Program-made: the position numbers and the translations under genes
Shown: one piece after another, positions 1,078 to 32,100 of the stretch
How the letters are laid out: each line of letters begins with the position of its first letter
Position numbering within the stretch: position 1 is the first letter of the stretch
NCBI RefSeq assembly: GCF_022045235.1
Contig: NW_027266265.1
Span: forward strand, 19,964,001-20,028,000
From: Haliotis cracherodii
Taxonomy: Eukaryota
Direction of reading: 5' to 3'
DNA length: 64,000 bases
Notes under the pieces: model-generated
Told to the model about the DNA's origin: nothing
What the model saw: the letters and a program-made list of their open reading frames with translations, nothing else
Databases searched by the model: none

Positions 1078-1643
1078 ATGGATGCGCAGTGGCAACATAC
1101 AAACGGCGCTTACTCTCGGTATTACTCTCAAAACCAAATGGGACAACAGGTACGTTGAATTTAGCCAGTCTGTTGTCGAAACACTTCACAATACTAAATG
1201 TTTAGCATAGCTTCAGATAGGTTTGTACATAATAATGAACCCTCAATTTAGACAGCGTTGTCAAGTATCTGGTGTCCCGCGAAAAAAGTTCTGTCCCTGA
1301 AAAACCGAAGTACATTTTAAGGGTCCTCATCTTGTTGTGTTCAATATAGCTTCCCGTGCAAACAGACAATTCGATCCAAGTTGTACGTCCAGGGACCGTC
1401 TCCTTTTCTAAATACTGCAGTAGGCCTAGTCCTTTACAAAGTTTAGCAGCTACGGTTTAGCGGGCAAATTTTAGATTAATAAGAATCATAATTAGCACCA
1501 TATCTTCGAACACCTAACAGTCCTGAGTGAGTGAGCATTCATCCGAAGAGAATCTTGTCTACTGCAGTGCAGCAAGTTTTGACGGTGCCATTTTAGCATA
1601 CAATTCTAGTGTCGGCCTATAGTGTTCTCATCGTGAGGCACGA

Positions 1644-1675
<32 letters not shown>

Positions 1676-4600
1676 GCCGGAATGACCCACGCCAAATGTT
1701 ACAACGTACGGATTATGTAGTTGACCAGTCACATATATAGTCCCAGCCTTTTTTACAGTGCATGAATATTCTTAATATTACAATATTGCAAAGCAGCATA
1801 TGTACGGTCCTTGCATGCACGTCAAAAGGAAAATTCAATTTGATGTTTAACTTTACAAAGTATCCTGTCAAATGCATGGGGTAATTCTTTGCAACAAACC
1901 AAGTACCAGCGTGCATCACCCAAAGACAAAAGATGTCCTACTTTATTTAGGTCACGTAGGCGTGTCACACAATATATACATGTATAACTTGTAGCCCTTT
2001 GGTCAAGGTCATGCACGAAATACAACGCTCTGAGTGGCTGAAATACACAGGGACTGATTGACAGTTTGTTTATCAGATCTCCCCAAATCAACATTGTATC
2101 TATGACTCTGGAACTTTGTGAGTGGCTGAAATACACAGGGACTGATAGCGGTCAAAAGTGATCTCCTAGTCACGACTGTAACTCAGTCGTCCACGGCAGT
2201 GCAACAACACTGATGTGGCGGTTGACCCGACGAATCATGAATACCAGGGGCGGCGAATCCCAGAATTTTTTTTAAAAAGGGGGTTACATTAATTTTACTT
2301 TAACACTCAAGTCAACATGTTATCATGATTGGAAATGCGCATCTTACCACCCACCCCCAAATCCGCTACAAACAAATGTGTTTTTGAAAATTTCAAATTT
2401 GTTAGAGAGTTTACTAAATGTTGTGAGGAAGAGAGATCGATATAGAAATGGAGCTGGGTGAGTGAGTAAATTAAATTTGGTCTAACTCCGTTTTGAACAG
2501 TATTTGGTATTTCAGTAATATCACGGGGTGCCAGTTGGATATAAAAGAAAAGCATAAAACTGGTGCTGCGTGAGAAAAGCATTGTTAAGAACTTTCATGT
2601 TCTCTTCCCAGAGTTTGAGTGGAGTGAACCCTGCAGGCAGCGACACCAAGCACCAGTGTCAGCAAGGTGAGCTGGAAATAAACCGATGAGCAAATGAAAC
2701 ATTTCAGTTGATATTATTATTTGTTGATTTTCAATTGAAAATGTCTAAAGTTAGCGATATCAATAATCATATCCATAATGTGAGCTGTACTTAATTGCGC
2801 CTAGTCAACAATCAAAGTATATCCTGGGATACTGCTATACATAGAGGTTATCAAGAGAGTGTGTTTGTGGATGGCTCGCTAAACACATAGTGTTTATTCC
2901 TAATACAGGTTATTTATCATCCCCAAACACACAAGCGTGATAACCTCTTTTTCATGTGATGTCATTCTCAATTCTGTGCTCGAAATCACCTCCCATCTCT
3001 CACAAACATATTACCTAAACATTAGATCTAAATGTTTTCCTGGAATATGCCCATTCATATATAATTACGTCAGAAGGCGGTACCGCGGCATTCATCGTAT
3101 CGCTAAGTGATATGTCAGTACTGAGTAGGGCAATGACAACAGTCAATATAGTTCCAACTGAAACCTATTTCTTATACAGTGGCGTAACTAGACAAAGGCA
3201 AAACAAGAATTGCCTACACCAACTGTGTCTACTACTTGCCTTTCGCGACAACCAGTCGGTCTGTCCGCAACTGCCCTTTATCAAAGGGAAGCTACTCTGA
3301 CTCTAGTCTGTGAGACGTCACATTTGTTTAGATAGAGTCTGCCTGTCCGGTCATAACGTTACGAAGTGCAATCAGTTGAACACACAACGACAAAACGAAA
3401 TAAGGGAACAATTAGGACATATTCGGCCAAATCCAACTATTTTAATTTGTAGAAAAGGTTCGAAGCCGCAGAGGTCAACAAGCACAGATACGGAAACTGA
3501 TCCCGCTAGGCTGGTGTCCTCGCTAAATTGTTTCGCAATTAATGTCTCCAATGTTACCCAAACTTGTAAAATGCCTTAGCTACTTCACAGTTAGACACTG
3601 ATTTTCAGTATATTAGACTGCTCTTTTGTAAAAGATAGCAATTATCACAGTAGTTTCCCCAGATACCCGATGGTTAATTCTGACGGGCGACGCCATGTTT
3701 GTTTGTACACTGAAAGTATAGTCTCCAGTCCCATATTTGCATCTATATCCGCATATGACCCAAATGGATATCGTTTTTATCTGTTGACTTAATCCTGCCG
3801 AGAATACTGCCCATAATATGATAAATGTTTTTATTTTTTAATAAATGCGTCTTTTCGGCACAAATTTACAACATTTCAAACATGGTAAGGCACTCTCCTA
3901 CACAGAGTTCCATGCGGCCGGCAGCCAGCCAGCATAGATTTAGTAGATCTACGTGGTGTTATGCTGAGTCACCACTGCGCTGGAGTTTGATGGTAAGGGG
4001 CATGCGGTTGCAAATTCTTTTCTTACCCAAGTCCTCATTGAATCAATTTATATTTACACAAATATAGCCAGCCACAGCTTTAGATTACTTTTTTACAAAC
4101 TGTTGCAGGAATGAGCAATGGTTAAATTCAATACCACCATCCTATTGTCACCAGTGGTGGTACACCCAGTATCACCATCCTATAGTCAGCTGTAGTGGTA
4201 CACCCAGTACCTCCATCCTATAGTCAGCTGTAGTGGTACACCCAGTACCTCCATCCTATAGTCAGCTGTAGTGGTACACCCAGTACCACCATCTTATAGT
4301 CAGCTGTAGTGGTACACCCAGTACCTTCACCCTATAGTCAGCTGTAGTGGTACACCCAGTACCACCACCCTATAGTCAGCTGTAGTGGTACACCCAGTAC
4401 CACCACCCTATAGTCAGCTGTAGTGGTACACCCAGTACCTCCATCCTATAGTCAGCTGTAGTGGTACACCCAGTACCACCATCCTATAGTCAGCTGTAGT
4501 GGTACACCCAGTACCACCACCCTATAGTCAGCTGTACTGGTACAACCAGTACCTTCATCCTATAGTCAGCTGTAGTGGTACACCCAGTACACCCAATTTT

Positions 4601-7600
4601 ATCATGCCCCTATATTCACCCAAAATGCAATTCCTCACACTGTAACCGACATCTCATCTGACACCAAAGGGCCATTAAAACTTCACACTTTTACTCGTAC
4701 TTTTCCTAAAAATGATGACACCTGACTTTGGCCAAGAGATTCCAATCACATTTTGAATATGGCCGCCAGGTCAGACATTGAAATAGCTATCAATTACCAT
4801 TATTCAAGTCATTTTTGAAGTGTTGGAAGATTTGTAGGCAGTAGTCCAAAATATACATATCCCGTTACAATATTTTACATTTGAATAGTAGTTTGAACCT
4901 GTAAAGTTTTTCTCATCTGAGATTGTCATACTGAGAGATACTTCCTGTATGTTCCGCCTTATGGTGACATCCTGTTTTAGTCAAATTATTTAAATATCAG
5001 CTTTTGTGAAGTGACCATTTTGTTGGCGTTATAAGTTTTAAACTGATGACTACATATCAAGCAGAGGTACAGCGCGGTGGGACTATTTTAAAGCATTTTT
5101 TGGTGTATGTTGCATTTATTTGTGTGGCCTTCCATTCCAGCATCCTCTGTGGGTCCTGGCACTGGCGCAAAACATGAATGGGTAGGTCACTTCTTTACTT
5201 GTCCATTTGGGTTGTGAATACTCATAATACCTGGTTAGGCAATAGATCATGGAACAGGCACCGGAAGTCACTGTGCGGAGTTCCTACCTTAGCCTACCAG
5301 GATCTGCTGATCACGGGTTGGACCTAGATTCACCCATATCAGTAATCTGGGTCTTTGGGTTTACCTGTTAATTGGTCATGAAAGGATGAGTTCAACTTAC
5401 TGTATTTCCTAATTTAGACGCCGGTGCTTCTTTTAGATGCAGATCTGGTGTCTATTCTGTTTAATACTGGCACAGTGGCAACTCACTACCTTACCAAATC
5501 CCAAATTCCACAGTCATATGAAGGAAACGGTCAGTATTAATCACCAACCAGTGCCGTTCCAACCCCCTTGGATTTTTTTTATAGAAAACATAAAGGAGTT
5601 GCCCATATTTATACAGAGATTGACCATTCTGCATGCTGTTCACATACATTTGTTTTGCATTTTCTGACATGTACGCCACTAAGCAGATCCCAGGTCAGAA
5701 CGAGACTCTAAAATCATCATGACAACCAAAGTTTTTATTTCTGTTTCAGGTCAATTGTTTTGACGACTTCTACAGTGACGTCTTTCTGAATGATTTTGAA
5801 AATGTTGATTTAGCAAAATATAATGTGGTGAGTTTATATATATATATATATATATATATTTCTTCAGAGTACAATATTGTTGTATTTATGTTTGTTTGTT
5901 TGTTTATTGTTTAACGCCACACTTAGCAATATATCCAGTTATATGATGGCGGTCTGTAAATAATCGTGTCTGGACATTCCTGTGATTGATGTCATTAGCA
6001 TTGATCCACGCTATCAGAATATGATGATATGCATCAACCAAGCCAATCAGAGAGATGGGCCCAGGTCATCCACAGAAGCGGACGGATTGTACGGCTCGTC
6101 TTGGATGAAAAATCGCCATCCGACTCCCTGCTTTTGTGGAAGTGACAGAGCGGGTTTCCGCAACCGGGAACATTGGCCACTCGGTCATCAACTATCATCA
6201 ACCTGTACCCTTTCAACTTATGTCAACCCATCCACAATGGGACAGTCGGGTAGCCTAGTGGTTAAAGCGTTCGCTCCTCGTGCTGAAGATCCGGTTCGAT
6301 TTCTGACATGGGTACAATGTGTGAAGCCCATTTCTGGTGTCACCCGCCGTGATATTGCGGATATTGGAATATTGCTAAAAGCGGCGCAAAATCATACTCA
6401 CTCACTCCCCATCGACAATAAACTTCACCCGTGGGTTTTGTCTTCCGTCTCCATCCGGAACTACCATGACCCGTAGGCAAAACAAAAGCACTTGGACAAT
6501 ATGACAATAAGATTTGATGTTTATTACCAAACGCAAAGAGGTTACACTGAAACACCACGAACACCATGGCGATCAACAAATCCGTGCTGAAGTACGTAAG
6601 TTCATCCTGGCATGATACCATATGGTTATATAACCCATGAAGATCCGGGTTACAATTGGTCTTCAGCAACCCATGCTTGCCATAAAAGGTGACTATACTT
6701 GCCATAAGAGTTGACTGACGGGAACTTGTGGTCAGGCTCGCTGGCGTGGTTGATGCATGTCATCGTATGCCATTTTCGTAGACAGATGTCAATCACTGCA
6801 TGGACTGTCTGGTCCAGACTCGATTATTTACAGACTGCCGCCATACAGCTGGAATATTGCTGAGTGCCGCGTTAAACAACGTTCAAACAAACAAGGGAAA
6901 GGTGTGCTAACGGATCGGCAGATGGCACCAACTGAACGTTATTTACTGCAACTACGATCAGATTACCGCTATTAACTCCTGAAACGAACCTTAGTTGTCG
7001 GAGAATGGATACATATATATTACATGCCACACTTATAAATAACTATTATATGTCAACATCTTGATTTCGCGATGAAAAAGCAAGCCCCACTGGAAGCTTC
7101 CAACAGTGAAATGTCAAACGGCGCACTACGTCAAATATATCCACCAATACATCGAAATGATAGGAGAGTGTAAGGAACATGTCATGCGCTGGGAAGGGGC
7201 TTGAGAAATTGTGAGAACAGCTGATTAGTTGAGTGAGTGAGAACATGATTTTACAGCTGATTGATTGATTGAGAAAATGTGTGTACAGCTGATTGAGTGA
7301 GTGAGTTACTGAGTTAGGGTCGCAGCCGGGGACACCAGAAAAGTGTAGCTGGTTAATCTCTGCATGTAAAACAATACTCATGACAGGACATACATGGAAT
7401 GGTAATCCACTTGTCTATTTTCATTGACCATCTTTGTAATAATATTTTGAACACTCGACAGATCTGATAAGGATGACGGTTTTCTTTTTCTTTTCTTTTT
7501 TAATTTTATATTTTTATATTAGTATATTTTATACTTATTAACTAAAATATCTTTTAACAGTTGAAATTTTCAGTGAATCCATGAAAAAGGTTTGTAAGCC

Positions 7601-10600
7601 ATACCAAATGACGTTTAAAAAGATTCCCTAAATCATCAATAAATGGTTTAAAAAAAATTCTTTTCGTAGTATTGAAAACCAATAAATATCAAGTATTCCT
7701 AAAACCTCACATTTACCATGATGCCATATTCCTTTAATGGCAATGTTCTTTCGAACAATATCTGCTATAAGCAGAAATAGGTTGGGTGACATCGGATACC
7801 CTTGCCTACAACCCCTTAAATTAAAACAAATGGAAAGGAGTCATTTTCATTAAAAATTGATACTCACTCTAACTTTTTCATAACTAAATAAGTGAATTGT
7901 TTAGATACTTAGTTTTAAATATTATCTGACGGGAGTCTTATGTTTTTATGTTTCAAATATTGTATGATACACGAGTCCTCTGTTTTAACTGATGCATATG
8001 CTCATGATATTCTAATGAATGACTGTCCAAAGTACATTTTAGTCTGTTGGTTGTGCATGGGCTTATTATTCTACATCCCGAGTTTAGCCAGTTACTAGTT
8101 TTCGGTGTTTTCCACTCACTGATAGTAACTATGTCACTCCATCATAGCCATCTCTGTCTGCCTGCAGGTGTGCACGCTGGAGATGCAAGGCGGCTGGTAC
8201 AGTGTTCCCAGCAGCACCACCTCTGTGTACAGCTCTGTGATCACCCCCTCCACCTACAGTGGCTGGAACAACCCACCTACCAGCCTCCCCACCCTCACAT
8301 CAGACAAACTGTATCTCAAGGGGGGCCTCCCACCCTCACTGACCAGGGAACACTTCCCACCTGGGGCTCATGAACCTCCACTGGGACATCTGCAGACAAT
8401 CGGTGGAGAACACCCACAAGGACATCTGCAGACAGTCGCAGGGGAACACCCACAGGGACATCTGCAGACAGTCGCAGGGGAACACCCACAGGGACATCTG
8501 CAGACAGTCGCAGGGGAACACCCACAGGGACATCTGCAGACAGTTGCAGGGGAACACCCACAGGGACATCTGCAGACAGTTGCAGGGGAACACCCACAGG
8601 GACATCTGCAGACAATCGCAGGAGAACACCCACAGGGACATCTGCAGACAGTCGCAGGGGAACACCCACAGGGACATCTGCAGACAGTCGCAGGGGAACA
8701 CCCACAGGGACATCTGCAGACAATCGCAGGAGAACACCCACAGGGACATCTGCAGACAGTCGCAGGGGAACACCCACAGGGACATCTGCAGACAGTTGCA
8801 GGGGAACACCCACAGGGACATCTGCAGACAATCGCAGGAGAACAGCCACAGGGACATCTGCAGACAGTCGCAGGAGAACACCCACAGGGACATCTGCAGA
8901 CAGTCGCAGGGGAACACCCACAGGGACATCTGCAGACAGTTGCAGGGGAACACCCACAGGGACATCTGCAGACAGTCGCAGGGGAACACCCACAGGGAAA
9001 TCTGCAGACAGTTGCAGGGGAACACCCACAGGGACATCTGCAGACAGTCGCAGGGGAACACCCACAGGGACATCTGCAGACAGTTGCAGGGGAACACCCA
9101 CAGGGACATCTGCAGACAGTCGCAGGGGAACACCCACAGGGACATCTGCAGACAGTTGCAGGGGAACACCCACAGGGACATCTGCAGACAGTTGCAGGGG
9201 AACACCCACAGGGACATCTGCAGACAATCGCGGGAGAACACCCACAGGGACATCTGCAGACAGTCGCAGGAGAACACCCACAGGGACATCTGCAGACAGT
9301 CGCAGGAGAACACCCACAGGGACATCTGCAGACAGTTGCAGGGGAACACCCACAGGGACATCTGCAGACAGTTGCAGGGGAACACCCACAGGGATATCTG
9401 CAGACAGTAGCAGGGGAACACCCACAGGGACATCTGCAGACAGTTGCAGGGGAACACCCACTGGGATATCTGCAGACAGTAGCAGGGGAACACACACAGG
9501 GACATCAGCAGACAGTTGCAGGGGAACACCCACTGGGATATCTGCAGACAATCGGCAGGGAACACCCTCAGGGAAATCTACAGACAGTCGGCGGGGAACA
9601 CCCTCAGGGGCATCTACAGACAGTCGGCGGGGAACGCCCCAAGCATGTGTCTCAGCTAGCACAGGACCGTGTTGTTGGGGCACCACAGCTGCCTGAAGAA
9701 GAGAAGGTTTTCTCCACACTTGGCCAGAGGCTGAATCTAGGTACCCGGTGTCATCAGAACGCAGATGTCGTGTTTCTACAGACTTCTTCAACCAATAAGC
9801 TTAGCGGTTTGACAAAGGCAGGTTCAGGTCTCCCAGAAGCAGGATCAACACTGCCTTCAATATCAATTATCATCAATACTTACGATGAGAAGGGCGAGTC
9901 AGCAAAAGCATGCCAATTTGACTCAACAGAGAATCTCGTGAGTGATGGATCAGTCGGAGATGTGACGTCATCGGAAGACCACTGGCAGACAACTGCATCA
10001 ACGTATGTATCGCTTAGTTCATCATCGACGTCGGGTCCCACCAGCAGCGACCACGTCTCCTCATCTTCTGATTCCAAGGACAGCAGCAAACATGTTAGGA
10101 ACAGGGAGGTTCGGCGGGCAGGTGGGCGACCAAGATTTCTTTCCTAATTTAAATCTAGAGTACCCATATGTAGACCACTGGCCTATACAGCGATGAGTAC
10201 ACACATACATTTAAAACATTGCATCGAGTGGTTGGAATATCATGTTAACCAAATCGTCACATTGTTCACATGCATGCAGTAGGCACTTTGCAGAAATGTC
10301 TCATAGTCAATTGTTGTCCTCAAGAAAGAACTATATTTGCAGTTTTCTTTTGGCATCATGCAAAAGGTTAATATTTCATTAATATTTTTGTTATCATAAA
10401 ATAAAACGAAATTGAAATAGGCTTCTGTACCCAAATTACTCTGTGTGCAAGAAACTTGTGTTGCATCAATATCAACCATCTCCCTTCTATGTTCCCTTAA
10501 TAAACCACAGCGTAACCTAATCAAAATATGCGCTTTGTCTCATACTGCAGTTGATGAACCGCGGCGACCTAAGAATGGTTTCATCCGTTTTTCCATTGAG

Positions 10601-13164
10601 CACCGACAGCAGATCGCTGTAAAGCACCCGAGACTGGACAACCGCGAGATCTCGCGAATGCTCGGCTGCAAGTGGAGAAAGCTGAGCAATGAGGAGAAGA
10701 AGCCATATGAGTAAGACTCACTTCTCCTGCCATCCTCACAACTGTGTAAAGAGATCTTCAAATTGTGCTGGGAGTTTGTACGACAAATACAAGGCACGAT
10801 CATAACGTTCCTATGTTATTGGCAACAGGCTGAATCTCCACCTGAATCTCCAATTTTCAAAATACCACAATCTCCAAAGTTTTTAGGACGTAGATCTACA
10901 TCTTCAAAGGAAAATCTTCAAGCTTTACGTTTCTTTCAATTAGGTGTTGTTAGTTTATCCTTCAGACTATGGATAACTCTATTTTCAATTAAGTTGGTAA
11001 AACAAGATCATGCTGTGTAGGTTTTACCTATAGTTTGCTGGCAGTTTCACCGTCATTTTAGGGTTGAGTTCGAGAAGGATATCCAGGCTATCCGGGAGGT
11101 GAACCCAGAATGGCGCTACGCCCCGGCCAGGCAGCTGGTTGAGGAGCTGATAGAACCAATGCCCAGTCGCCTCCGACCCAGGAACAGCCTCAAGCGAAAG
11201 AAGGTACTACTGGACAAATGCTATTGTAGACATACCCAGGCAGTTTGTTGTTTAACCGCACACAGCAATATTTCAACTATATGGCGCAGCCTAGATAAGA
11301 CAGTCCAGAGATTTTATATACAACCATGTACCCTGTCAGAGTACAGTGTTACCTGATCAACCAAGTCACAAGGCCTGACCATCTGATCCATTAAGCATCT
11401 TACAACCAGCTTCGGATGCTGGGAACCTATTCTATCATGGGACCATCAGTTATTTTGGGGGTGGGGGGGTGGTGATATTTCTTCTTCAGTGGGGCTGGTT
11501 GTTAGTCCCTATTGGATGGTACAGTCGAAAATGATCTATGGAAATAAATTTACCACACCAGCCATTTTGAAATTGTCTAGTGTAGGCAACTGGAATGATC
11601 AAGTGAAAGTTCAAATGCAATTGTTTCAATCATGAAACCTGAGAGTGTGTTCCCCACAGCTTCCCAGCCTGGTGAGAACATACAGTCGCCGCCAGAACTC
11701 CGGCAAGTCTTCCAAGACCAGCAGGAAAAAACTCCCTGCAGTCCAATCAGAGATGCTTGATCCAGCTGCCACACCCTTAAGTGTGGAGGACCCATCAACC
11801 ACCTGGGTGCAGTGTGATCTGTGTGGAAAGTGGCGATGTCTGCCCGGCTTCATCCAACCAGAGGCACTGTGTGACATATGGTGAGTGGAGGTCAGGGTGG
11901 TGATGTCTGCCCGGCTTCATCCAACCCGAGGCACTGTGTGACATGTTGTGAGTGGAGGTCAGGGTGGCGATGTCTGCCTGGCTTCATCCCACCAAGACAC
12001 TGTGTGACATGTTGTGAGTGGAGGTCAGGGTGGCGATGTCTGCGTGGCTTCATCCCACCAAGGCACTGTGTGACATGTTGTTAGTGGAGGTCAGGGTGGC
12101 GATGTCTGCCCGGCTTCATCCCACCAGAGGCACTGTGTGAAATGGTGTTAGTGGAGGTCAGGGTGGTGATGTCTGCCCGGCTTCATCCAACCAGAGGCAC
12201 TGTGTGACATGTTGTGAGTGGAGGTCAGGGTGGCGATGTCTGCCTGGCTTCATCCCACCAAGACACTGTGTGACATGTTGTTAGTGGAGGTCAGGGTGGC
12301 GATGTCTGCCCGGCTTCATCCCACCAGAGGCACTGTGTGACATGTCGTGAGTGGAGGTCAGGGTGGCGATGTCTGCCTGGCTTCATCCCACCAAGGCACT
12401 GTGTGACATGTCATGAGTGGAGGTCAGGGTGGCGATGTCTGCCCGGCTTCATCCCACCAAGACACTGCGTGACATGTTGTTAGTGGAGGTCAGGGTGGCG
12501 ATGTCTGCCCGGCTTCATCCCACCAGAGGCACTGTGTGACATGTCGTGAGTGGAGGTCAGGGTGGCGATGTCTGCCTGGCTTCATCCCACCAAGGCACTG
12601 TGTGACATGTTGTGAGTGGAGGTCAGGGTGGTGATGTCTGCCCGGCTTCATCCCACCAAGGCACTGTGTGACATATCATGAGTGGAGGTCAGGGTGGCGA
12701 TGTCTGCCCGGCTTCATCCCACCAAGACACTGTGTGACATGTTGTGAGTGGAGGTCAGGGTGGCGATGTCTGCCCGGCTTCATCCCACCAAGACACTGTG
12801 TGACATGTTGTGAGTGGAGGTCAGGGTGGCGATGTCTGCCCGTCTTCATCCAACCCGAGGCACTGTGTGACATGTTGTGAGTGGAGGTCAGGGTGGCGAT
12901 GTCTGCCTGGCTTCATCCCACCAGAGGTACTGTGTGACATGTTGTGAGTGGAGGTCAACTACTGCTGACTTCAAAGCTAATGTGTGTACCCTTTGTTTCA
13001 GGTTTTGCTACTTCAACCCCGACAATCGGTACAACTCCTGCTCTATCAAGGAGGAGCTGGACCCCGACGATGCCTCTGCCCCTCCACATTTGCCTGTCCC
13101 CCCGAACTCCACATGTACAGCATACAGTGGTGGCCATGTGCTGTCCCGAGAACCCTCCTGGTAG
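1078..13164 (+). CDS. HMG-box + CW-type zinc finger protein with a 12-aa tandem repeat (9 coding exons, ~961 aa)
   Basis: Exons 1078-1149, 2612-2666, 5141-5181, 5750-5827, 8168-10121, 10551-10710, 11062-11203, 11660-11880 and 13002-13164. All introns are GT-AG and phase-compatible (2886 nt, TAG at 13162-13164). The HMG box spans exons 6-7 (EPRRPKNGFIRFSIEHR...NREISRMLGCKWRKLSNEEKKPYEVEFEKD...NPEWRY). The zf-CW spans exons 8-9 (WVQCDLCGKWRCL...W/FCYFNPDNRYNSCSIKEE). The four short 5' exons rest only on splice signals and phase. An extra start exon (ATG ACT|gtaagt, 528-533, spliced to 1051) is also in frame. Confidence 0.8.
2843..3826. mobile_element. ~1-kb non-autonomous element with a palindromic left end (copy 1)
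   Basis: Colinear with 22823-24018 in the same orientation. Hairpin agaggttatca...tgataacctct at 2843-2948. Confidence 0.75.
4133..4590. repeat. 38-bp minisatellite, ~12 copies
   Basis: Unit tatagtcagctgtagtggtacacccagtacctccatcc; period 38 (4181, 4219). Confidence 0.95.
6239..6407 (+). mobile_element. tRNA-derived SINE with (ACTC)n tail
   Basis: A box tagcctagtgg, B box ggttcgatt, tail actcactcactc. Same family as 50053-50150 and 55321-55486. Confidence 0.85.
6632..6892 (+). mobile_element. SINE of a second family (Nin-domain-like) with (AAAC)n tail
   Basis: Central motif acccatgcttgccataaaaggtgact and 3' end ggtccagactcgattatttacagac...gctgagtgc..gttaaacaac. Related fragments at ~5889-6050 (-) and ~26715-26850 (+). 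The family name comes from recalled similarity. Confidence 0.7.
7480..7830 (-). mobile_element. degraded L1/Tx1-type LINE reverse transcriptase fragment
   Basis: The minus strand reads RGCRQGYPMSPNLFLLIAD near 7760-7816, matching the RT motif GxRQGxPLSPxLF. Boundaries are approximate. Confidence 0.6.
8368..9635 (+). repeat. coding 36-bp minisatellite (GEHPQGHLQTVA x ~35)
   Basis: Unit ggggaacacccacagggacatctgcagacagtcgca, lying in frame within exon 8168-10121. Confidence 0.95.
11830..12957 (+). repeat. 66/67-bp tandem array of the exon 8/intron 8 junction (original plus 16 copies)
   Basis: Each unit is the last ~51 nt of exon 8 plus the first ~16 nt of the intron. Donor-like motifs recur at 11881, 11948, 12014 ... 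12944. Confidence 0.95.
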
Positions 13165-13435
13165 TGCTCCAGGTACAGCACACTGGTGAAGAACATAAAC
13201 AAAGACCAACTTGTTTCACGTCAAGTAGGCAGTGTTACTACTGGAAAAATATAGACAGTTGGATTCCCCTGTCTAACTTGCTTGCCAAATGTTCTTTCAA
13301 AATAATAGGACTTGAAATGCTACTTCTTGTATCTGAATGGAGTGGCATGAAATAACTAGAATAACTGGAATAACTAGATGCAATGCTCTAACTTGTCCAT
13401 CCACTGATGAGAAACTAAGCAATGACTTATCTGTA

Positions 13436-13780
13436 CAAGTGTTGGCAATTCTGTAGGAGCTGAATAAGCCTTGGTTAGTCTGTAGGAGCTGAACAAGTGT
13501 TGGCGAGTCTGCAGGAGCTGAAGAAGTGTTGGCGAGTCTGTAGGAGCTGAACAAGTGTTGGCTAGTCTGTAGGAGCTGAACAAGTGTTGGCAAGTCTGTA
13601 AGAGCTGAACAAGTGTTGGCTAGTCTGTAGGAGCTGAACAAGTGTTGGCGAGTCTGTAGGAGCTGAACAAGTGTTGGCGAGTCTGTAGGAGCTGAACAAG
13701 TGTTGGCAAGTCTGTAGGAGCTGAACAAGTGTTGGCTAGTCTGTAGGAGCTGAACAAGTGTTGGCAAGTTTGGAGGAGCT
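13436..13780. repeat. 29-bp minisatellite, ~11 copies (probable 3' UTR)
   Basis: Unit gtctgtaggagctgaacaagtgttggcga; period 29 (13623, 13652). Confidence 0.95.
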
Positions 13781-14606
13781 GTCTGTCAAACATACTTGTA
13801 TAAAGCACCACATAGATTAAGCATCTTGAAAAGGAGGCTCGTAGTGGTTGTTGTACCCGAAGGAACTATCTTTTTCTTTATGGTCATAAGTGAGACTGGT
13901 AAAGACCCAGTCATGCTCTAAATGGTTTGGGTTCTTTTTACCTCTTTCCATCTTTTATCTATTAGGACAGGTCATGCTACTTTCACAGGGGATTAGTCTG
14001 GGAAGCTTAACATTTAATGGAGAACTCACATCAAACCTTACACCTTGAGCAGTTCTGGTCACTTAGCCTGGAATCTTGGATGGTCTTACTTTTCCCATTT
14101 ACCTTGCAAGGAGGTGTCTTACCAACAGCTTCATGATAAGCAGACAATGGCCCAGAAATACAGACCTTTTCCCAAAAATTTACATAATGTAAAAACTGTC
14201 CATCAAAATGTCTTTTTCTTGCAGACAATATGGGGATTACTTATCAATCTGGGTATGTTGATATTGGCTACAAATGCACTGATCTGCACGAGTACTGGTG
14301 TTTTGTAAACTATTAACTTTGCCACTAAACATTGTTTACTTATTGTCATTGTTTTGTTTGGTAACTAGAAATGTGTTGTGTCTAATCAGAAACTGAAGCA
14401 ACCCCATTATCGCACTGACCCGAATATACGCCACCAACATTTTAACATAGGATTTTAATACATTTAAATGCACGCCTGTTGCACCAAGATGTAAACACAA
14501 AAAATCACATGCCTGGCTTTCACATTGACATTTTATATTAAAACAAAAACTGGCTGATACATGGCTGTATAATTCATTGTAACCGGACAATATTGCTCAA
14601 TCACTA

Positions 14607-15465
14607 AGCAGCATGTCATCAACAGGTATTCTTTGAGTGGATCCCTATTGTGGCTAGACCATAGCAACATGTCGTCAACAAGTTTTCTTCCAGTGGATCC
14701 ATATTCTGGCAACAGTCATTCTGCAAGTGGATCCCTATTGTGGCAACAAGACATAAGCAGCATGTTGTCAACAAGCATTCTTCAAGTGGATCCCTATTGT
14801 GGTAAAACACAAGCAGCATGTCGTCAACAGGCATTCTTCAAGTGGATCCCTATTGTGGTAAGACACAAGCAGCATGTTGTCAACAGGCATTCTTCAAGTG
14901 GATCCCTATTGTGGTAAGACACAAGCAGCGTGTCGTCAACAGGCATTCTTCAAGTGGATCCCTATTGTGGTAAGACACAAGCAGCGTGTCGTCAACAGGC
15001 ATTCTTCAAGTGGATCCCTATTGTGGTAAGACACAAGTAGCATGTCGTCAACAAGCATTCTTCAAGTGGATCCCTATTGTTGTAAAACACAAGTAGCATG
15101 TCGTCAACAAGCATTCTTCAAGTGGATCCATATTGTGGTAAGACACAAGCAGCATGTCATCAACAGGCATTCTTCAAGTGGATCCCTATTGTGGTAAGAC
15201 ACAAGCAGCGTGTCGTCAACAGGCATTCTTCAAGTGGATCCCTATTGTGGTATGACACAAGCAGCGTGTCGTCAACAGGCATTCTTCAAGTGGATCCCTA
15301 TTGTGGTAAGACACAAGCAGCATGTTGGAACAAGCGTTCTTCAAGTGGATCCCTATTGTTGGAACAAGCGTTCTTCAAGTGAATCTCTATTGTGGCAAGA
15401 CCTTACCAGCATGTCGTCAACAAGCATTCTTCAAGTGGATCTCTATTGTGGCAAGACACAAACAG
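14607..15465. repeat. 56-bp minisatellite, ~15 copies
   Basis: Unit caagcagcatgtcgtcaacaggcattcttcaagtggatccctattgtggtaagaca; period 56 (14881, 14937). Confidence 0.95.
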
Positions 15466-16555: not shown

Positions 16556-19500
16556 TCACCTTTTGCTCTTACTCAGACGAAGAGATTTCTCTAATTCAAA
16601 CTGACGTACATCTGCTCGGTTTAGAAAGGCCATTCTTTCCAGGTATCTGTAAATAGGATAGAGAGATCTGAGGACCTTGAACTGAAGTCAGACCACCAGT
16701 CTACTTTCAACAGGTGCTGTACTGTACACTTTCACAAAAGGAGTACTTTACATCGCAGTTACATCTTCAACTTTGTTGTCTTTGTCCAACAACAGATCGT
16801 ACCATACACCACACTATAAATCTGCCTGATTAATTGAGAGGACATCATTTCACAGATAATCATAACCAAATGTCAAAGTTAGACACAAACATGCAGTTTC
16901 TGTCTATAGTTTCCAATGTTCAGCCTTTCTTAACTGATGGTTTTAAGTTGCATAAAAAAATAATACACTGAAGCATTTGCCTATAACACTGTTCAAGAGG
17001 TCATGGATGCCTAGCTTACAGTGGCAGCGGAGTGACCTTTCCCAGTGAAATTTGAATGTAATCTGTGATGACAGAAAAAAACCTACAAACTTCTACGAAA
17101 CCCCTAAATTATAAGGCACATTACTTACGACTCTTTTCCTCTATTGTGGATCTGCAGATCGTCCTCAATTCCTTCATCCTTCTTAAAAGTGTTCCAGTCC
17201 ATCTTAGACTTCTCCTGTAATATCAGACCATAATCTTACAGTGCTCTGGTCCACTAGACAGGAGTGTATGTTACAGTGCTGTGGTCCACTAGACAGGGGT
17301 ATAAGTTACAGCGCTCTGGTCCACTAGACAGGGGTGTATGTTACAGTGCTGTGGTCCACTAGACAGGAGTGTATGTTACAGTGCTGTGGTCCACTAGAGA
17401 GGGGTATAAGTTACAGTGCTGTGGTCCACTAGACAGGGGTGTAAGTTACAGTGCTCTGGTCCACTAGACAGAAGTGTATGTTACAGTGCTGTGGTCCACT
17501 AGACAGGGGTGTATGTTACAGTGCGTTGGTCCACTAGACAGGGGTGTATGTTACAGTGCGTTGGCCCTTAGACAGGGGTATAAGTTACAGTGCTGTGGTC
17601 CACTAGACAGGGGTATATGTTACAGTGCGTTGGTCCACTAGACAGGGGTGTATGTTACCGGTATGTGGTCCACTAGACAGGGGTGTATGTTACAGTGCTG
17701 TGGTCCACTAGACAGGGGTGTATGTTACAGTGCGTTGGTCCACTAGACAGGGGTGTATGTTACAGTGATGTGGTCCACTAGACACGAGTGTATGTTACAT
17801 TCTGTGGTCCACTAGACAGAGTGTATGTTACAGTGATGTGGTCCACTAGACAGGGGTGTATGTTACAGTGCTGTGGTCCACTAGACAGGAGTGTATGTTA
17901 CAGTGCTGTGGTCCAGCAGACAGGGGTGTATGTTACAGTGCTGTGGTCCACTAGACAGGGGTGTATGTTACAGTGCTGTGGTCCACTAGACAGGGGTGTA
18001 TGTTACAGTGCCTTGGTCCACTAGACAGGGGTGTATGTTACAGTGATTTGGTCCACTAGACAGGGGTGTATGTTACAGTGCTGTGGTCCACTAGACAGGG
18101 GTGTATGTTACAGTGCTCTGGTCCACTAGACAGGGGTGTATGTTACAGTGCTGTGGTCCACTAGACAGGGGTATATGTTACAGTGCCTATGGTCCACTAG
18201 ACAGGAGTGTATGTTACAGTGATGTGGTCCACTAGAGGGGTGTATGTTACAGTGATGTGGTCCACTGGTCATGGTAATTAAAATGGTCATGAAACCTTAC
18301 AGTACAGTTCACTATATACTATTTCATTACTTACCAGGACCCTCATATTTCCTGTAAGGACCCTTGAAATTAATTAAAAGGAGTCCCTAGTCTATTTATA
18401 GAAGTATGTCATTGTTATGGCAGGCACATTGACTTCTGAGCACTATTCATCTCCAAACTAAAACTTGACATCCTAGTTCTATCTGAAAACTGTATAATAA
18501 AGCTGAGCCATGGCACTTTAGGCGGACACACTATGGTCGGCCAGTTGAATCAATATGCTGATTTTCACCCAGTCATATTATCTGAGTGAATTATAGAATT
18601 CGACAAAAGGGACAAATTGGATGCTAAAACCTGTGTCGATTGTTGCGAGTGTGTAGAGTCTGTTCTAGCTATTCGTCAAGTTGGATGTGGTGTGACCAAT
18701 CACATTGGTGTCATCTGATGTTTGTTTACACGCAATTGCAAAACATGCCTTCGTCTGCTGCGAAGAAACCACGCCTTGACTTTTTAAGAGAGGAAACTGA
18801 GTATTTGGTGGCTCACTATCTGAGTCACGCAACCCTGTCAAATGTCTCAAGAATTAGGCGAGCCGCTTCTTGTCTTCCCTTACCAGCACACTCATCTTGG
18901 GCTTCTTGCCAATCTTGTTGAGGAGCCCACCGAGCCCTGCAGCCGGCCTCTTCACACCACTGCTGACAGAAGAGCAATCATAATAATGAATAATGATAGG
19001 CCATTTATATTTCAGCATATTTCCACACCACACAGGGGCATGCTGAAAGCAGTATCATTACCCTGGTCACTGGACCAGAGTGCACTCACCAATCATTCTC
19101 TGCTCCCTCAAGAGCATACAACCCAAGCTGCCTGTTAGTCTCTCTCGACCAATGTTGCTTAACTTTACCTGATTTGTGACCTGTGCACTGTGCACAGGAA
19201 CACATGCCACGACAATCCATCTACACACACACAACTATGCCACCTTCTACAGGGTCCCAGCTATATACATTAAGTGTGCCACCTGCAATGGATATGTAGT
19301 CAACAGCATAAATCTAGACCACCAGATGTCAGACTTTCATTGGTGGCTGAGTGGGTTAGATTGCTGACCTTGTTTGCTGGCGATTAGGTGCCTCACTCTG
19401 AGAGCGTGGGGATCAACCCGAAAATGTACTAGAATTTAGTAAAATCTAAATATTTTTTACATTTGTACACTTATCCTGCATTACTCCGTATTGCATTTAC

Positions 19501-22500
19501 TGCTGTCTTTTGACAGAGATGAACTGTGTGAGATCCAGCTGCTGAAGAAAGTTGGCCCAACCAGTACAGGAAGCAGCGCGAAGCGAAGGGAGGGCACTTA
19601 GACTTCGTAATGCAGGATAAGTATACAAATGTAAAAAATATTTAGATTTTACTAATACTTTTAACTTATCCTGCATTACTTCTTAATGCACCTCTATCTG
19701 ACGGCATGGCAGGTGGGCATACCTTCAGATGTGATCCATAATAAACCCTCGTCAAGGTCTGATGAATCCGCACCACATACAAGTGATGACCGGAACATCC
19801 ATTTCTGTGGAATTTGGAAGTTCAGCCATGTTGAAAATCGCATTTGAACCTCTTAAACAGATTTGGATGTCATCTTTGGTGTGAACAAGTATGTGAAGTT
19901 GCAGATAATTTGGTCCTGTGGTTTCTGAGCAGAAGATATTTAGGACACAGAATGGATGCTGGAGAAACAGACCATCACATTAGCTCACTTGCCTTTCATT
20001 CAGACAGGTTTACAAAATACTTAATGATACATGCCACACTTCAGTCTGCATTGATTCATCTCATTTCACAAATTTCATTTCAGATGGTAAGAAGTCCATT
20101 ATGTAGTCCCCTCATAGACTTGGGTTGTCTTAATATAACATGAAACTTTGTGATAAGAACCTTATTTGGTAAAATGGTCAGCTTTCTAGTGGTTGTCTGT
20201 ACATGCTGTACTACCCAATAACTCTATAATACTTCCATGTCCTGAAACCTATTGTTGATGAGCCTCCCTGCAGTAGGTAATGTACTCACATGCCAGATAA
20301 ACCTGATGGCTTCTCCGATGTAGTTGGTGTACTGCTTTTAGCGTCTTCAGATGAAGTCTGTTGTTTCTTAATTTCTTCCTGAGCCTCTCTTGATGAGACA
20401 TCAACCTCTTTGGTTACCCTGTGAAAGTTGAGACAATCCCCTTTAGGTGTGCCACACTAAAGCATTGTATCAATGTACTTGTATTTGACTCTTAAGTAAT
20501 TCTACAAATGAGATATCAGCAACCATTATATCTTATAATGTAACCATGTTTTTGTTTGCAAGATAAAATAAATGCTCTTTGACAAGAATATCTATTCTTT
20601 GCAGTCCCATCTGAAACATCTTCAACAGTATAGTTTGTCTGCATCATTAAACCCATTATCACTTCAGTACATGTCAACCCATTTATCCAAATGTGACATA
20701 CTTGACCTCCTCTCCAGCAAAATCAAAAACCTTTGTGATGGTCACTGTCCCTGACATGGTGGTCCCAGATTCAGATGCTGCTTGTGATGGTGATTGTTTG
20801 GGAGTGGTCTTGGTTGGCTGAAACACAGTTTCTACTAAATGTGCACCATTTCACACATAACATTGCTAGGACTGCCTTACCCTCTACAAACACGACTACA
20901 GCATCAAGCAGCTGCTGACAAAAGACACCAAACCTCAGGGCATGAGACAGAGAAAGGAGAAGGAAGCCTGTTTAGGGACTCAGTGTGTGCCATATTTCCG
21001 ACACTGAACAGTTAACACTGTAAATGTATCACAACAAAGACAAATGATGATGTTCTTTGTGCTGAACAGATATGTGCATAAACCTGATCATACCGTACAC
21101 CCCAGGGGACCCTCATAATGAACCAAAGTATTAGCATGTAGGTGGGACAATACATACAGACAGTGATACACTCTAGGTATCTACATTAAATGTTGCAATT
21201 ATTAAACGAAGGCAACAATAAAGTCTTTCAGTCTGGAAAGTTGTCAATTTCTTTTATGGCCTACAATTACTCATTATCTGATATCTACTTAGGTAGGCCT
21301 TACAGTTTGCTGGGTCAGTCAGGGTTAAGGAACAAGGGACAAAAACCTTGGTTTTCAAAGTGTATTGTATTGACTGCTGCAACACCATGTATCTATTTCC
21401 ATGTGTTCATTTATGACAAAGAACAGTTTATCTCACTTTATTTTAATAATAATGCTAATGTTTGCAGATGCAAGAGAAAATACAATCACTGAGATTTCTG
21501 TTCAGATTATCAACCATTGAATTTTGATCACTTTACAGAAGGCGGAGATTTTGCTCATTAAATTTGTTGTTGTTTTATGCCGCACAGTGCACTCAGCAAG
21601 ATTCCAGCTATACAACTCGAAACAACATTCACTGAATCTAAGCATACTAAAATGAGGTCATGAATCAGTGAGCTAAAATACCGATGTCTGAATTATCATA
21701 AGGTTGAAGCTGTCACCTTTGCCATACTAGTCAGGGCACCAAGTCCTATGGAGGAAATCTTTTTTGGAGGTGGTGTTTTCATGTCAGACATGAAGCTTGA
21801 CCATAGGTCATCTGCCTTCTTCTTCTCCTGTTCCTCCTTCTTTGCCTCCTTCTCCTTGGCAATCTCCTGCATCAGATCCCGGCTGTCAGGCTCTCCATGT
21901 GGGAGCTCACCTGTCTCCTCCTCACCATCCAGCTTGATGCCTCCCTGCCTCTTTCTAAACAAGGAAAGTCCCTCACGATAAACACCTGTACGGGATATCA
22001 CATGACAATATCCATCTGATGGTTTCAAAAGATCAAAATGACATTATTTCAAAATGATCCCCAGCTTTCTCACAATGCCGGTATTGTCCTGCAATAATAA
22101 ATGATCTTTACCATGTTTACATGCTACGCTACTAGTGCAGGCTGTAACTAGTAGTCACATAAATACATCTTTCATGGACTGGGCTCAGGAGTGATGGGAT
22201 TTCTGTTGGGGCTGTAGGGGACATGCCCTTATATTATAACTGCCTTGCTCAAGTTGTTGGTTGTAGACAAACATGGAGAGGGAACTAGGAATATCACAGA
22301 AAGCATAGTTTTGTGCACTGACTAACATATTTCAAAGCCGATTTTACTAGCAGTTATAACCATACAGTTTAGATAGAGTATCACCTTGGTACCAGGTCAT
22401 TTTTCTTTTTGCATCTTTCTTTTCTTCCTCCAACTTTGCCATCTTGTTTTGCATCTTCATTCAGGGCATCGAGATCTTCCTCATCTCCGGACCCTTCCTC

Positions 22501-27065: not shown

Positions 27066-28542
27066 TACTGAGTCAAATTAAAAACTTAACATTTTAAAAC
27101 GTAATCCCATATATGATATACAACGGACAAATGTATCAGAGAAGGTAATTTTTAATCATTAATGTCCAAAGAAGGATTTTAATTAACGGTGGTAACCATA
27201 ATTTGTTCCAGGCACCTACGGTATTCGGTAATAACATCAACAGTTTAAATCATAAGTCCCAAGCACGAGAATCTGATGGAACACAAGTTCAGTAGCGTGT
27301 ATGGCCACCATGTGCGTTGACAACTGCCGCACAACGCCTCCGCATGGACCTTGTGATGCTTGTGAACACATGATTGGGAAGACGACGCCATTGTTGCTGC
27401 AAAATGGTGCCAAGATCTTGTAAATTCTGTGGTTGGTTCTGGAGAGTGCGCAGACTTCTGCCAAGAGCATCCCAGACGTGTTCGATGGAATTGAGGTCGG
27501 GAGACCTTGACGGCCTGTCCATGACGTTGACACCCGCATTCTGAAGGAAATTCCTTGTCAAAATTGCTGTGTGGGGTCTGGCATTGTCGTGTTGGAAGAT
27601 CAAACCGGGTCCATGTGCTGCCATTAAAGGCAGAAGTTCTGGTGCCAGTACCTGGTCGCGGTAAGCAAGAAGCCTGGAACGTGCATTGCCACAGAAAGCA
27701 CCCCACACCATGACACTTCCGCCTCGAATCTGTCAACTTCCTGTACACAACACTGGGCGTAACGTTCATGACAGCGCCTCCACACCCTCGCCCTATAATC
27801 AGCAAATCGAAGATTAAATCGGGATTCATCACTGAAGACGACTTAATTGATTCCAATCCCTCTGAGTCCATGGTAAGTGTCGCTGTGCCCACAATTGACG
27901 TTGACGTCTGTGTAATTGAGTCACAATCGGCCCGCAGTATGGCCGTCGTGCTTGAAGGTGAGCAGTTCTCAGACGGTTTCGAACAGTTCATTTCTGGTTG
28001 ATGTAGCCGACAAAAATCGGTTACGGAGGTGACGTAAGACAATCTGACGATCCTCTGCATGTGATGTCAAACGTGGTCGACCTGGCCGAGGGCGATCAGC
28101 GGTGGTACCCGTTTGCTGTAGACGCGTCTGTAAATCATAAACAGTCCGTCGACTACAACCCATCGTCCTTGCGACTTCAGCTACGGACGTTCCCGTCTGC
28201 AACATGCCGATGGCACGTTCACGCTGCACATTTGAAAGGCGTGGCATGACAAATGGCAGTAAAGACATTTGTTTTCTTGTGTTTTTCTTTTTTTTTGTTA
28301 ATGACTGCTATCAAGTATGGCTGAAAACAAGTGCGGGATTATGGCCACGTGACTATAGTTGCACATGAAAAAACACTTTTGCCACTATAGTACTGTGCAC
28401 ATGATTTTGATCGATTCACCTGCACAAAAACGGGTGTTATCTGAAGACAATACGTGGCCATTACTGTTTAAATACACAATAAGGGCCCACTGGTCAAAAT
28501 GTTAAAGTTGTAGGATTGTGAAGTTTTTAATTTGGTTCAGTA
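27066..28542 (-). mobile_element. Tc1-family (DD34E) DNA transposon with frameshifted, partly deleted transposase
   Basis: 26-bp TIRs (tactgagtcaaattaaaaacttaaca; 3 mismatches between ends) with TA on both sides. Transposase pieces from ATG 28247 to 27289: HTH, RPRPGRPR, SDES, MVWGA, and FQHDNARPH...SPDLNSIEHVW with 34 residues between D and E. Confidence 0.93.
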
Positions 28543-29130: not shown

Positions 29131-32100
29131 ATGACTGCTACAAAGGATTTTCAAACGGACGAGCTGGATTCAATTCTAAATGTCTTGTGGCTGTCTGCAA
29201 ATGACGCCCTGGACAGTTTTGGAGGTGAGAGTACAATCAGTCTATAAGTTGTGTGTAGGAGTGTTTTTATTGTCAGCAATGTTACATACGATAAACTGTA
29301 ACAGTATAAGGAATGTCGGTAAACAAAACCAGTCAAATGACCACTTACATTTACAGGAGATCATGGCATATATGGGTCATTCTCTAAAAAAGTAACATTT
29401 TGGCCTATGAAAAATCAACAAATCAGAATTCATTTTTGAAATGTTTTTGTTGAGCAGATAAACAACATAACAATTACTGAATACAAGTCTAAAATATGCA
29501 GGCTTAATATGTCTTATTTTCCTTTTTGCAGAAAACTATTTCTGGCATCTCTGTACCAAATGTCTGTGCTGTTACCGTGCATAAAAATCAGTTTTTGTCA
29601 CCAAACATAAATCTAAAATGAATAAAATTTATGATATGGTTGTTGCATTTTGGCATAGTTCAAATGTCAAAAGCTTTAAAATTTCATTTATTGGCTTTAC
29701 TATACTATTAGACTGTAAATATATGCATACAATGGAATTATTTGCAAAAAGATGTACGATAAACTTGTCTACTTCTTACACTGAAATGGAACTACCATAA
29801 TTCTATAAGGTAATAATAGTTATTACACTCATTTTATGAATTATATATATTTTTGTCAGCAGAGTTGAACCAATTTTAACTTTTGAGATGGCAGAAACCT
29901 TGTGACAGGAAAGACATTCACGGTAACAGGACAGACAACATGGTAACAGGAAAGACAAAATATTTTGTAATTGCCAAAACTATAATAACTATTTCTGTGT
30001 TCTGTGTTTCAGAAGTAAAGGTAGTCAAAAAAAGGGAAACTCAATGAATGTGCATATCAAAGCGTTAGGTGTATTTTGTATCTGACCTTAATTAGATAAA
30101 AATGTGAGGTTTGGTAACAGCACAGACAAGCAAAAATTCATAAACCAATATTATGTGGAATTGCTCATCTCAAAAATAGAACTTGATCAGAAACTCTACC
30201 AACAACCTTAATGGCACTTTTTGAGGTTATTGTTGCTTATTCCAAGCATAAACCTGTAAGGAAACAAGAATAGTCAACTTTCAAAACTTCAACAGTAACA
30301 TATTTGCACTTTTACCAAATGATAGCATTATATGATAACATTCAGTAAATCATTCTTGACCTCATTCATGTGCACATATAAACACAGGTTATTGTTTGCC
30401 ATGAATTGTTTCCAACATATCTTCCCACAAAGAAGACTCAACACAATAGTCAGAGGACAGTGATATTTTGGAAGGCTCTGGTACAAAGCTAACTATGTCC
30501 TTAAATTGGTATCAGCATTTGTCTTTAAGTTTGCGTGGCCAGAAGAAACAATTTGCATTCCCGTGCTTTCCCGCGTTATGCATATATTCCACAAAAACTT
30601 CACCTAGCTCTATATCTTCAACATAACCAGGATATGATATGTTATACACAATGACAACGAATTTCCCGGGGCATTCATTTGTATCAACTGGCTGGTGTAT
30701 TTCCTTTTGTCTTTCCATCTTATCATCATCTGAACTTTGTACCATTTCCTTACTTGTCTTTTGGTGAATTTCATCATCATTCAGACTCTCCATTCTGTCA
30801 ACACACACCTCCACTTCTCTCTTTCCCCGACTCATACACTCCATTCTGTCAGCACACACCTCCACTTCTCTCATTCCCCCACTCATACACTCCATTCTGT
30901 CAACACACACCTCCACTTCTCTCTTTCCCCCACTCATACACTCCATTCTGTCAGCACACACCTCCACTTCTCTCATTCCCCCACTCATACACTCCATTCT
31001 GTCAGCACACACCTCCACTTCTCTCTTTCCCCGACTCATACACTCCATTCTGTCAACACACACCTCCACTTCTCTCTTTCCCCCACTCATACACTCCATT
31101 CTGTCAGCACACACCTCCACTTCTCTCTTTCCCCCACTCATACACTCCATTCTGTCAGCACACACCTCCACTTCTCTCTTTCCCCGTCTCATACACTCCA
31201 TTCTGTCAACACACACCTCCACTTCTCTCTTTCCCCCACTTATACACTCCATTCTGTCAACACACACCTCCACTTCTCTCTTTCCCCCACTCATACACTC
31301 CATTCTGTCAGCACACACCTCCACTTCTCTCTTTCCCCCACTCATACACTCCATTCTGTCAGCACACACCTCCACTTCTCTCTTTCCCCCACTCATACAC
31401 TCCATTCTGTCAGCACACACCTCCACTTCTCTCTTTCCCCCACTCATACACTCCATTCTGTCAACACACACCTCCACTTCTCTCTTTCCCCCACTCATAC
31501 ACTCCATTCTGTCAGCACACACCTCCACTTCTCTCTTTCCCTCATGCACAGACACGGTGTTTGAAGTGATCATGTAAAATTACTTTCATTCAAAGTTGCT
31601 AAATATGTTACATTTCTTAATTATGTACAACAGTAGGGCGAGCAAATTGAATAATTGTTCATTATTTGTGTCAACTTGGTAAATAAATCAAATGTCTTTG
31701 CTGTCACTGAAAAGTGTCTGTGCTGTTACTATTAAATGTCTGTGCTGTTACCAAAGTTCTACTGTGCAGTGTAATCAGTGTTTATTGACCCAAATGTTAA
31801 TGGAAATTCAATTTTTCCGGTAACTAACAAAAGCCTAAGAGATAGAGTTTTAAAGACACTGAAACATTGAACAAAACTTTCTCAAAATCTCTATTAAACA
31901 CTAAATGTCTGTGCTGTTACTGTTACGTGTCTGTGCTGTCACAGTCACTCATAGACACTGTGTTTGAAGTGATCATGTAACATTACTTTCATTTAAATTT
32001 GCTAAATATGTTACATTTCTGAATCATGTACAACAGTAATGCGAGTAAATGAATAATTGTTCATTATTTGTGTCAACATGATAAAAAATCCTAAAATGTC

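Follow-up and report, generated by a model that had tools for sequence, protein, structure and literature searches.

Among the described systems closest to the gene discussed here are proteins that combine a helix-loop-helix (HLH) segment with an HMG box. MEIOSIN pairs a basic HLH (bHLH) with an HMG domain, and in STRA8 a bHLH is accompanied by an acidic stretch and an HMG-like domain (PMC13637641). In the same article, MEIOSIN binding is placed near start sites, its bHLH is reported lost twice in vertebrates, in zebrafish and hagfish, and species beyond those studied are not analysed; the passages available from PMC11273298, PMC7743902 and PMC12824366 contain nothing on invertebrate MEIOSIN or STRA8. 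In oyster, CgBHMG1 has been described as a factor involved in meiosis (PMC8945556), and another gene, LOC105322460, carries the label 'Sox-like' from Sun et al. 2023 and is classed as tissue-specific to the male gonad (PMC12111275, Tables S4-S6). Here we describe a gene that joins an HMG box to a CW zinc finger (zf-CW), hereafter the HMG-CW gene, in a 64,000-nucleotide stretch of the abalone Haliotis cracherodii (the window; NCBI RefSeq assembly GCF_022045235.1, contig NW_027266265.1, positions 19,964,001 to 20,028,000, forward strand). It is a real gene, very likely the orthologue of the named oyster testis gene, and not a wholly unknown system. On balance, we lean towards reading its spliced product as a gonadal transcription factor and an ancient paralogue of MEIOSIN/BHMG1 rather than as a Sox protein.

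The HMG-CW gene has nine coding exons, which join into 2,886 nucleotides (nt) encoding 961 amino acids (aa) with a single terminal stop, and all eight of its introns are GT-AG; the spliced, phase-consistent open reading frame (ORF) claimed in an earlier note on this DNA is thus confirmed. The features of the gene, with their support from the Haliotis protein models P0003 and P0184, four public sequencing runs (X1, X2, X3 and X9), Pfam and a repeat scan, are as follows:

1078..1149, plus strand: coding exon 1, with the ATG; P0003 residues 1-24 matched at 100%
2612..2666, plus strand: coding exon 2; in frame, AG/GT, P0003/P0184 match by eye
5141..5181, plus strand: coding exon 3; match to Haliotis models, joined ORF
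5750..5827, plus strand: coding exon 4, acidic-aromatic patch; patch similar in Haliotis proteins
8168..10121, plus strand: coding exon 5, low-complexity region, 12-aa repeat and Ser-rich linker; joint to exon 6 in 4/4 runs
8378..9639, plus strand: 36-bp coding tandem repeat within exon 5, 35 copies; repeat scan, ORF
10551..10710, plus strand: coding exon 6, HMG helices 1-2 and start of helix 3; RNA contigs, Pfam
11062..11203, plus strand: coding exon 7, HMG helix 3, family-specific P-x-P-x-RLRP tail and basic KRKK; RNA contigs, tail profile
11660..11880, plus strand: coding exon 8, a basic linker followed by the CW finger's first half with Cys 1-2 and both cage Trp; RNA contigs, Pfam
11830..12957, plus strand: 66-bp minisatellite, 17 copies; repeat scan, contigs
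13002..13164, plus strand: coding exon 9, the other half of the CW finger with Cys 3-4 and its acidic end, then the stop; loose contig ends in X3 and X9, ORF

Exons 1-4 are supported by the matches to P0003 and P0184, and RNA joints cover exons 5-8. Contigs of the four runs, which come from different organisms and unlabelled tissue and were taken as presumed RNA on the strength of their GT-AG joints, were aligned to positions 9640-11895. The joint between exons 5 and 6 occurs in all four runs, that between exons 6 and 7 in three, and that between exons 7 and 8 (11203 to 11660), which the earlier note had proposed to check with junction reads, in two. One X3 contig (record 16, 1,842 nt) joins 9640-10117, 10547-10710, 11062-11201 and 11658-11882, and because it carries all three joints, the HMG box and the CW finger lie on one transcript, not on separate ones, in these related organisms. 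Beyond exon 8, the contig ends in X3 and X9 read into exon 9. The next-best genome matches to the HMG exon are only 38-44% identical, and by sequence the gene looks single-copy in the abalone genome.

Both domains are readily recognized: the first HMG exon matches Pfam HMG_box at an expect value (E) of 1e-16 and the first CW exon matches zf-CW at E 4e-7, above the cut-off, and the near-identical Haliotis protein P0184 contains the full domains (HMG_box 3e-18, zf-CW 1e-14). All the motifs previously read from the DNA are present, namely RPKNGFIRF, NPEWRY, the KRKK tail, and the two cage tryptophans and four zinc-binding cysteines of a complete CW finger. Aligned with other HMG boxes, this one keeps the Asn, the Phe-hydrophobic wedge, the second Asn and the final Tyr, residues that mark the sequence-specific DNA-binding class, and lacks RPMNAFMVW, so that its placement as a non-SOX member of that class stands; DNA binding and bending are predicted. 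The CW finger is matched best, among solved structures, by the CW domains of MORC3, and its binding of methylated lysine 4 of histone H3 (H3K4me) is predicted; that the finger reads this mark seems to us quite probable. It shares the four cysteines and two cage tryptophans with MORC3/4, ZCWPW1/2 and ASHH2, and its acidic end with MORC3. These readers are the top matches in sequence and fold searches, but in them the finger accompanies a GHKL ATPase, a PWWP or a SET domain, whereas that of abalone is joined to an HMG box. An AlphaFold model of a relative from Lineus is poor overall (predicted local distance difference test score of 48), with the HLH as two helices and the HMG box and CW finger as separate parts; a fold search with it gave no match at E<=0.001, and the ESM Atlas gave no usable match.

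The acidic-aromatic patch does lie in exon 4, but the proposal that it is an activation region found no support: a profile of a similar-looking motif from five other gastropods had no match in Haliotis, which also removes the patch as a pan-gastropod motif. That it might be an HLH remnant was ruled out (hhalign probability 0.1%).

The HMG-CW gene belongs to a family that spans bilaterians. Searches with the HMG exon yielded 16 candidates, of which 15 are longer proteins, all invertebrate, and 11 carry zf-CW; a profile compared with 1.84 billion representatives added, among its best 150 matches, members from a hemichordate, amphioxus, oyster, Solemya, further gastropods, octopus and a millipede, most of those 150 being multi-CW or multi-HMG proteins. 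Relatives with both HMG and CW occur in molluscs, a brachiopod, a nemertean, an annelid, a millipede, hemichordates and amphioxus. The matches listed include none from vertebrates, echinoderms, cnidarians, insects or nematodes, an absence that carries little weight in searches that are capped or word-limited. A profile of helix 3 and the tail recovers 19 family proteins at E<=3e-20, the next match being SoxE at E 0.55. The family forms one clade with support of 88/90 in a 40-row tree and 95/93 in a 26-row tree, for which short Sox/TCF exons, UBF and several family rows were removed and oyster and fungal rows and a second abalone HMG gene (discussed below) were added; its sister group is unsettled in the trees. 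The abalone gene has the RP[KQ]NGF HMG box and the RLRP tail of the family and groups with LOC105322460. The CW finger is complete in 21/26 rows, with both cage tryptophans in 20 of these 21; octopus, two scallops and two possibly shortened models lack it.

The oyster member P0171 is 49% identical to the abalone protein over the HMG-CW region, and its cluster, represented by P0164, corresponds to Crassostrea gigas LOC105322460, which, judged by sequence, is very likely the abalone gene's orthologue. The two proteins share their clade, the RPKNGFIRF box, the tail and the CW finger; the oyster protein keeps an HLH (P0164, 42 bits) and has no 12-aa repeat, whereas the reverse holds in abalone. 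In mature males the oyster gene has expression values of 22-39, against 0.4-0.9 in mature females and 16.1/16.8/1.6 at the resting stage; it falls in the same cluster as DMRT1 and is male-biased in C. sikamea too (PMC12111275). In print it is filed as HMG/Sox-like, and the passages and tables available mention neither HLH nor CW. Because this orthologue is published as 'Sox-like', the gene is not unnamed, contrary to the earlier note. The other part of that claim, that the pairing is undescribed, holds in the literature searched: a search for the two domains together returned two papers, on PWWP and SET proteins, six locus tags returned none, and the HLH-HMG-CW architecture, the bilaterian spread, the non-Sox status and the probable MEIOSIN kinship were not found described. 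Bivalves have six main Sox groups and several orphan Sox and bHLH genes, and the passages that report them do not name the HMG-CW family (PMC12530298, PMC5381572).

The oyster label itself appears to need revision. Members of the Sox family have the RPMNAFMVW motif and an HMG box at least about 50% identical to that of SRY/Sox. The HMG-CW gene has RPKNGFIRF in its place, is 28-36% identical to the Sox rows and sits in its own clade (95/93), and on these comparisons it is not a Sox. More broadly, the family resembles SOX (SRY, SOX2, SoxH/SOX30), CIC, BBX, HBP1 and TCF in its single HMG box with residues of the sequence-specific class, and differs from them in lacking RPMNAFMVW, in its HMG identity (28-39% to the Sox, CIC and BBX rows), in its clade and in its intron.

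The pairing of HMG and CW holds, although the ancestral protein probably had a third domain, an HLH, which the two-domain description did not foresee. The N-terminal HLH stretches of ten relatives were picked by eye; nine of them match Pfam HLH at E<=10, that of amphioxus above the Pfam cut-off, and a profile of the ten matches USF1 and TAL1 at 1e-6, and also MyoD. Leave-one-out scores range from 6 to 36 bits, with no shuffled control; for two oyster proteins that were not used in training, the scores are 42 and 67 bits. The 14 other rows score nothing, comprising all 11 gastropods, this gene included, as well as Lingula, Ptychodera and Solemya. No HLH was found in the abalone protein, the window or 150 kb of flanks, nor does a detached HLH exon or gene lie in that interval. 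The simplest reading of these sequences is that the ancestral form was HLH-HMG-CW, with the HLH lost in gastropods and the CW finger lost in scallops and octopus.

The kinship with MEIOSIN/BHMG1 depends on a second abalone HMG gene, picked from weak Pfam HMG matches on contig C45 (G000:C45:55135500-55150000, minus strand, about 55.14 Mb; L091-L093), which has three HMG exons with canonical splice sites. Its HMG box resembles what we take to be the MEIOSIN box, and OPA3 is presumably a neighbour of human MEIOSIN/BHMG1. Symplekin and OPA3 both lie on C45, a contig that makes up 6% of the genome, and the HMG-CW gene lies on C2. In human, SYMPK is found within 128 kb around BHMG1 (PMC4863877), and oyster BHMG1 is a separate gene, LOC105327228 (protein XP_011425869), which is male-biased yet present in nine tissues (PMC12111275). 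The C45 gene is thus likely, from its sequence and setting, to be the better abalone candidate for MEIOSIN/BHMG1, and because oyster has a separate BHMG1 and the C45 gene shares a contig with Symplekin and OPA3, the HMG-CW gene is probably not MEIOSIN. Two other leads failed: an exact six-residue MEIOSIN-like HMG pattern gave 22 matches against 23 for a control, with none of 20 inspected lying in an HMG box, and an exon of similar appearance at C45:24.22 Mb turned out to be a retrotransposon frame.

Two features link the HMG-CW and C45 genes. Both have the NGF motif (NAF in Sox), and both have the phase-2 intron that ends exon 6 of the HMG-CW gene. Its donor interrupts, at phase 2, the codon that follows the helix-3 Tyr and occurs in only these two of 21 anchored HMG exons in the genome; 22 exons were examined, SoxH being mis-anchored and excluded despite a frame that runs open through the site. 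In models from Lingula, Pecten, Littorina and amphioxus, the break lies on or next to this codon, which makes the intron a probably ancient feature of the family. Given the common motif and intron, the two genes are plausibly ancient paralogues, a grouping that the 26-row tree supports weakly (49/65). With MEIOSIN/BHMG1 the family has in common the order HLH then HMG in its fuller members, repeated HLH loss and testis bias. It differs in that oyster, and probably abalone too, has the two as distinct genes, in an HMG box about 25% identical to that of the C45 gene, and in the addition of the CW finger and the conserved tail.

We lean towards a joint reading in which each part has its own strength. 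That the protein helps to activate genes of germ cells or of meiosis, chiefly in testis, we regard as probable, and that the HLH-HMG-CW family and MEIOSIN arose by an early duplication as somewhat favoured. The HMG box, which is followed by an invariant tail and a basic patch, would bind the minor groove and bend specific germline promoter DNA, and the CW finger would hold the protein on H3K4-methylated nucleosomes and so reinforce HMG binding. An HLH partner would join where the HLH survives, and the abalone protein, lacking one, would act through HMG and CW alone.

Contig depth gives a weak hint of gonad enrichment. In X1, X2, X3 and X9, respectively, depth is 3-8, 5.6, 117 and 366-378 for HMG-CW contigs and 3-4, 0, 225-331 and 1079-3024 for spliced SYCP3 contigs, so that the order tracks SYCP3, and a common repeat (400k, 171k, 293k and 217k) shows no rise in the two runs where both genes are deep. 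The comparison covers four runs of different organisms, chosen for holding the HMG-CW gene, and has no housekeeping control. A SPO11 locus was also found and was not used in the analysis.

Several observations weigh against this joint reading. The case for the C45 gene as MEIOSIN is built on a resemblance in motif, two synteny markers and the label used in oyster; the 50 kb upstream of its HMG exons yielded no HLH (best E 0.26); and its HMG box is 24-31% identical to the family and 27-34% to Sox, hence no closer to the family. The HMG phylogeny, a kind of check that the earlier note proposed, separates the family from Sox (95/93) and joins it to the C45 gene, our MEIOSIN candidate, at just 49/65 in the 26-row tree. 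In L082, a further HMG exon, the donor sits one base past the common intron site, so that this site is open to chance. The loss of the CW finger in scallops and octopus makes it dispensable in some lineages. Furthermore, contig depth is a poor measure of expression, and X2 has spliced HMG-CW contigs and zero SYCP3, which points to likely expression of the gene outside meiotic tissue to some extent.

In one alternative, which we hold to be rather unlikely, the family is an independent gonadal HMG lineage within the Sox/CIC/BBX radiation that gained its HLH and CW by domain shuffling and resembles MEIOSIN by convergence; together with DMRT1 it would act in determining male sex or in differentiation of the testis, not in meiotic entry. 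The HMG box is 28-39% identical to CIC, BBX and Sox against 25% to the C45 gene, and CW fingers are found in many unrelated architectures. The CgSox-like paper (Sun, Yu and Li 2023, Aquaculture 566:739234) reportedly speaks of sex determination in its title. The oyster gene is already active in resting gonads, and its cluster is that of DMRT1 rather than that of BHMG1 or PRDM9 (PMC12111275). The NGF motif and intron in common with the C45 gene speak for paralogy instead, as does the order HLH then HMG, which in animals we know only from MEIOSIN and STRA8.

Doubtful, too, is a special case of the joint reading that we prefer, in which the family is the invertebrate STRA8 orthologue, an HLH-HMG-CW partner of MEIOSIN whose vertebrate counterpart let its HMG box decay and lost its CW finger. 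The bHLH, acidic region and HMG-like domain described for STRA8 (PMC13637641) match this layout and a germline context, and oyster has both 'Sox-like' and BHMG1, each about 5.5 log2 male-biased (PMC12111275). Several family HLHs are, by eye, acidic where a basic region is expected, as in a dimerization partner, and the presence of the family in amphioxus, with no vertebrate among the matches listed, fits a diverged vertebrate copy. However, none of the ten family HLHs matches Pfam bHLH_STRA8 (PF23175; filters drop E above about 0.1), the family HMG box is intact where that of STRA8 is degenerate, and the family has a CW finger. The single genome match to bHLH_STRA8 is a frame riddled with stops. 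As neighbours of STRA8 we take NUP205 and CNOT4, which lie on C23 and C11 rather than on C2 (0/2 markers), and the HMG-CW gene's own neighbours are TMEM170 and VAC14. That the HMG-CW gene is the abalone MEIOSIN orthologue itself is very improbable: relatives with the same domain order, an HLH loss like that in zebrafish and hagfish (PMC13637641) and gonadal expression of the oyster orthologue (PMC12111275) would suit it, but oyster BHMG1 (LOC105327228) differs from LOC105322460, and C45 holds the better candidate with Symplekin and OPA3, SYMPK lying within 128 kb of human BHMG1.

For most invertebrates, little is known of how germ-cell and meiotic genes are switched on, and a second, conserved HLH-HMG gene that has a histone-reading finger, found from mollusc to amphioxus and testis-specific in oyster, is a named and testable candidate. 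A gene of interest to shellfish breeding, 'Sox-like', would be reclassified, with a chromatin-reading mechanism that the available texts do not mention. Were the STRA8 orthology true, the MEIOSIN-STRA8 pair would have duplicated before the protostome-deuterostome split, the ancestral partner would have had its own H3K4me reader, and the meiotic-entry switch would far predate vertebrates.

Repeats shape both the gene and its annotation. P0003 and P0184 are about 200 aa shorter than the 961-aa product, and the copy number of the 36-bp repeat varies among Haliotis models. The 66-bp minisatellite duplicates the CW-coding end of exon 8 plus its donor into the following intron, and contains 11 GTGAGT copies, the first of which is the donor used in the contigs; it could cause mis-splicing or mis-annotation, and the H. 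rubra model P0001 ends differently at that spot. Long minisatellites with periods of 29-56 bp are numerous inside and near the genes of the window (4132-4590, 13431-13781, 14710-15359, 17236-18266, 30781-31541, 33192-34306 and 35353-36825).

Near the HMG-CW gene (21696-22043, minus strand, and 37269-37493, plus strand; L011 and L015) lie a CFDP1-like exon (by eye, no Pfam match) and, by Pfam, TMEM170 and VAC14, three genes that we assume to lie together on human 16q22-23. Between VAC14 exons is a Polinton/adintovirus-like insertion (L013-L014, G000:C2:20048001-20068000) with an A32-type ATPase and an rve integrase (Pfam) and a DNA-polymerase-B-like frame (by eye). Further remnants recognized by eye are Tc1/mariner-like (27245-28307), Ty3/gypsy-like (50993-53365) and mariner-like (58763-59669), and acidic and basic open frames at 54950-55950 (plus strand) resemble exons of another gene. 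Elsewhere in the genome, a tandem pair of TCF-type first HMG exons separated by 365 bp (L033 and L034, G000:C12:34.708 Mb) are possibly alternative exons, and a divergent Sox-like HMG gene (L038, G000:C23:19564602) lies beyond SoxB1, B2, C, D, E, F and H.

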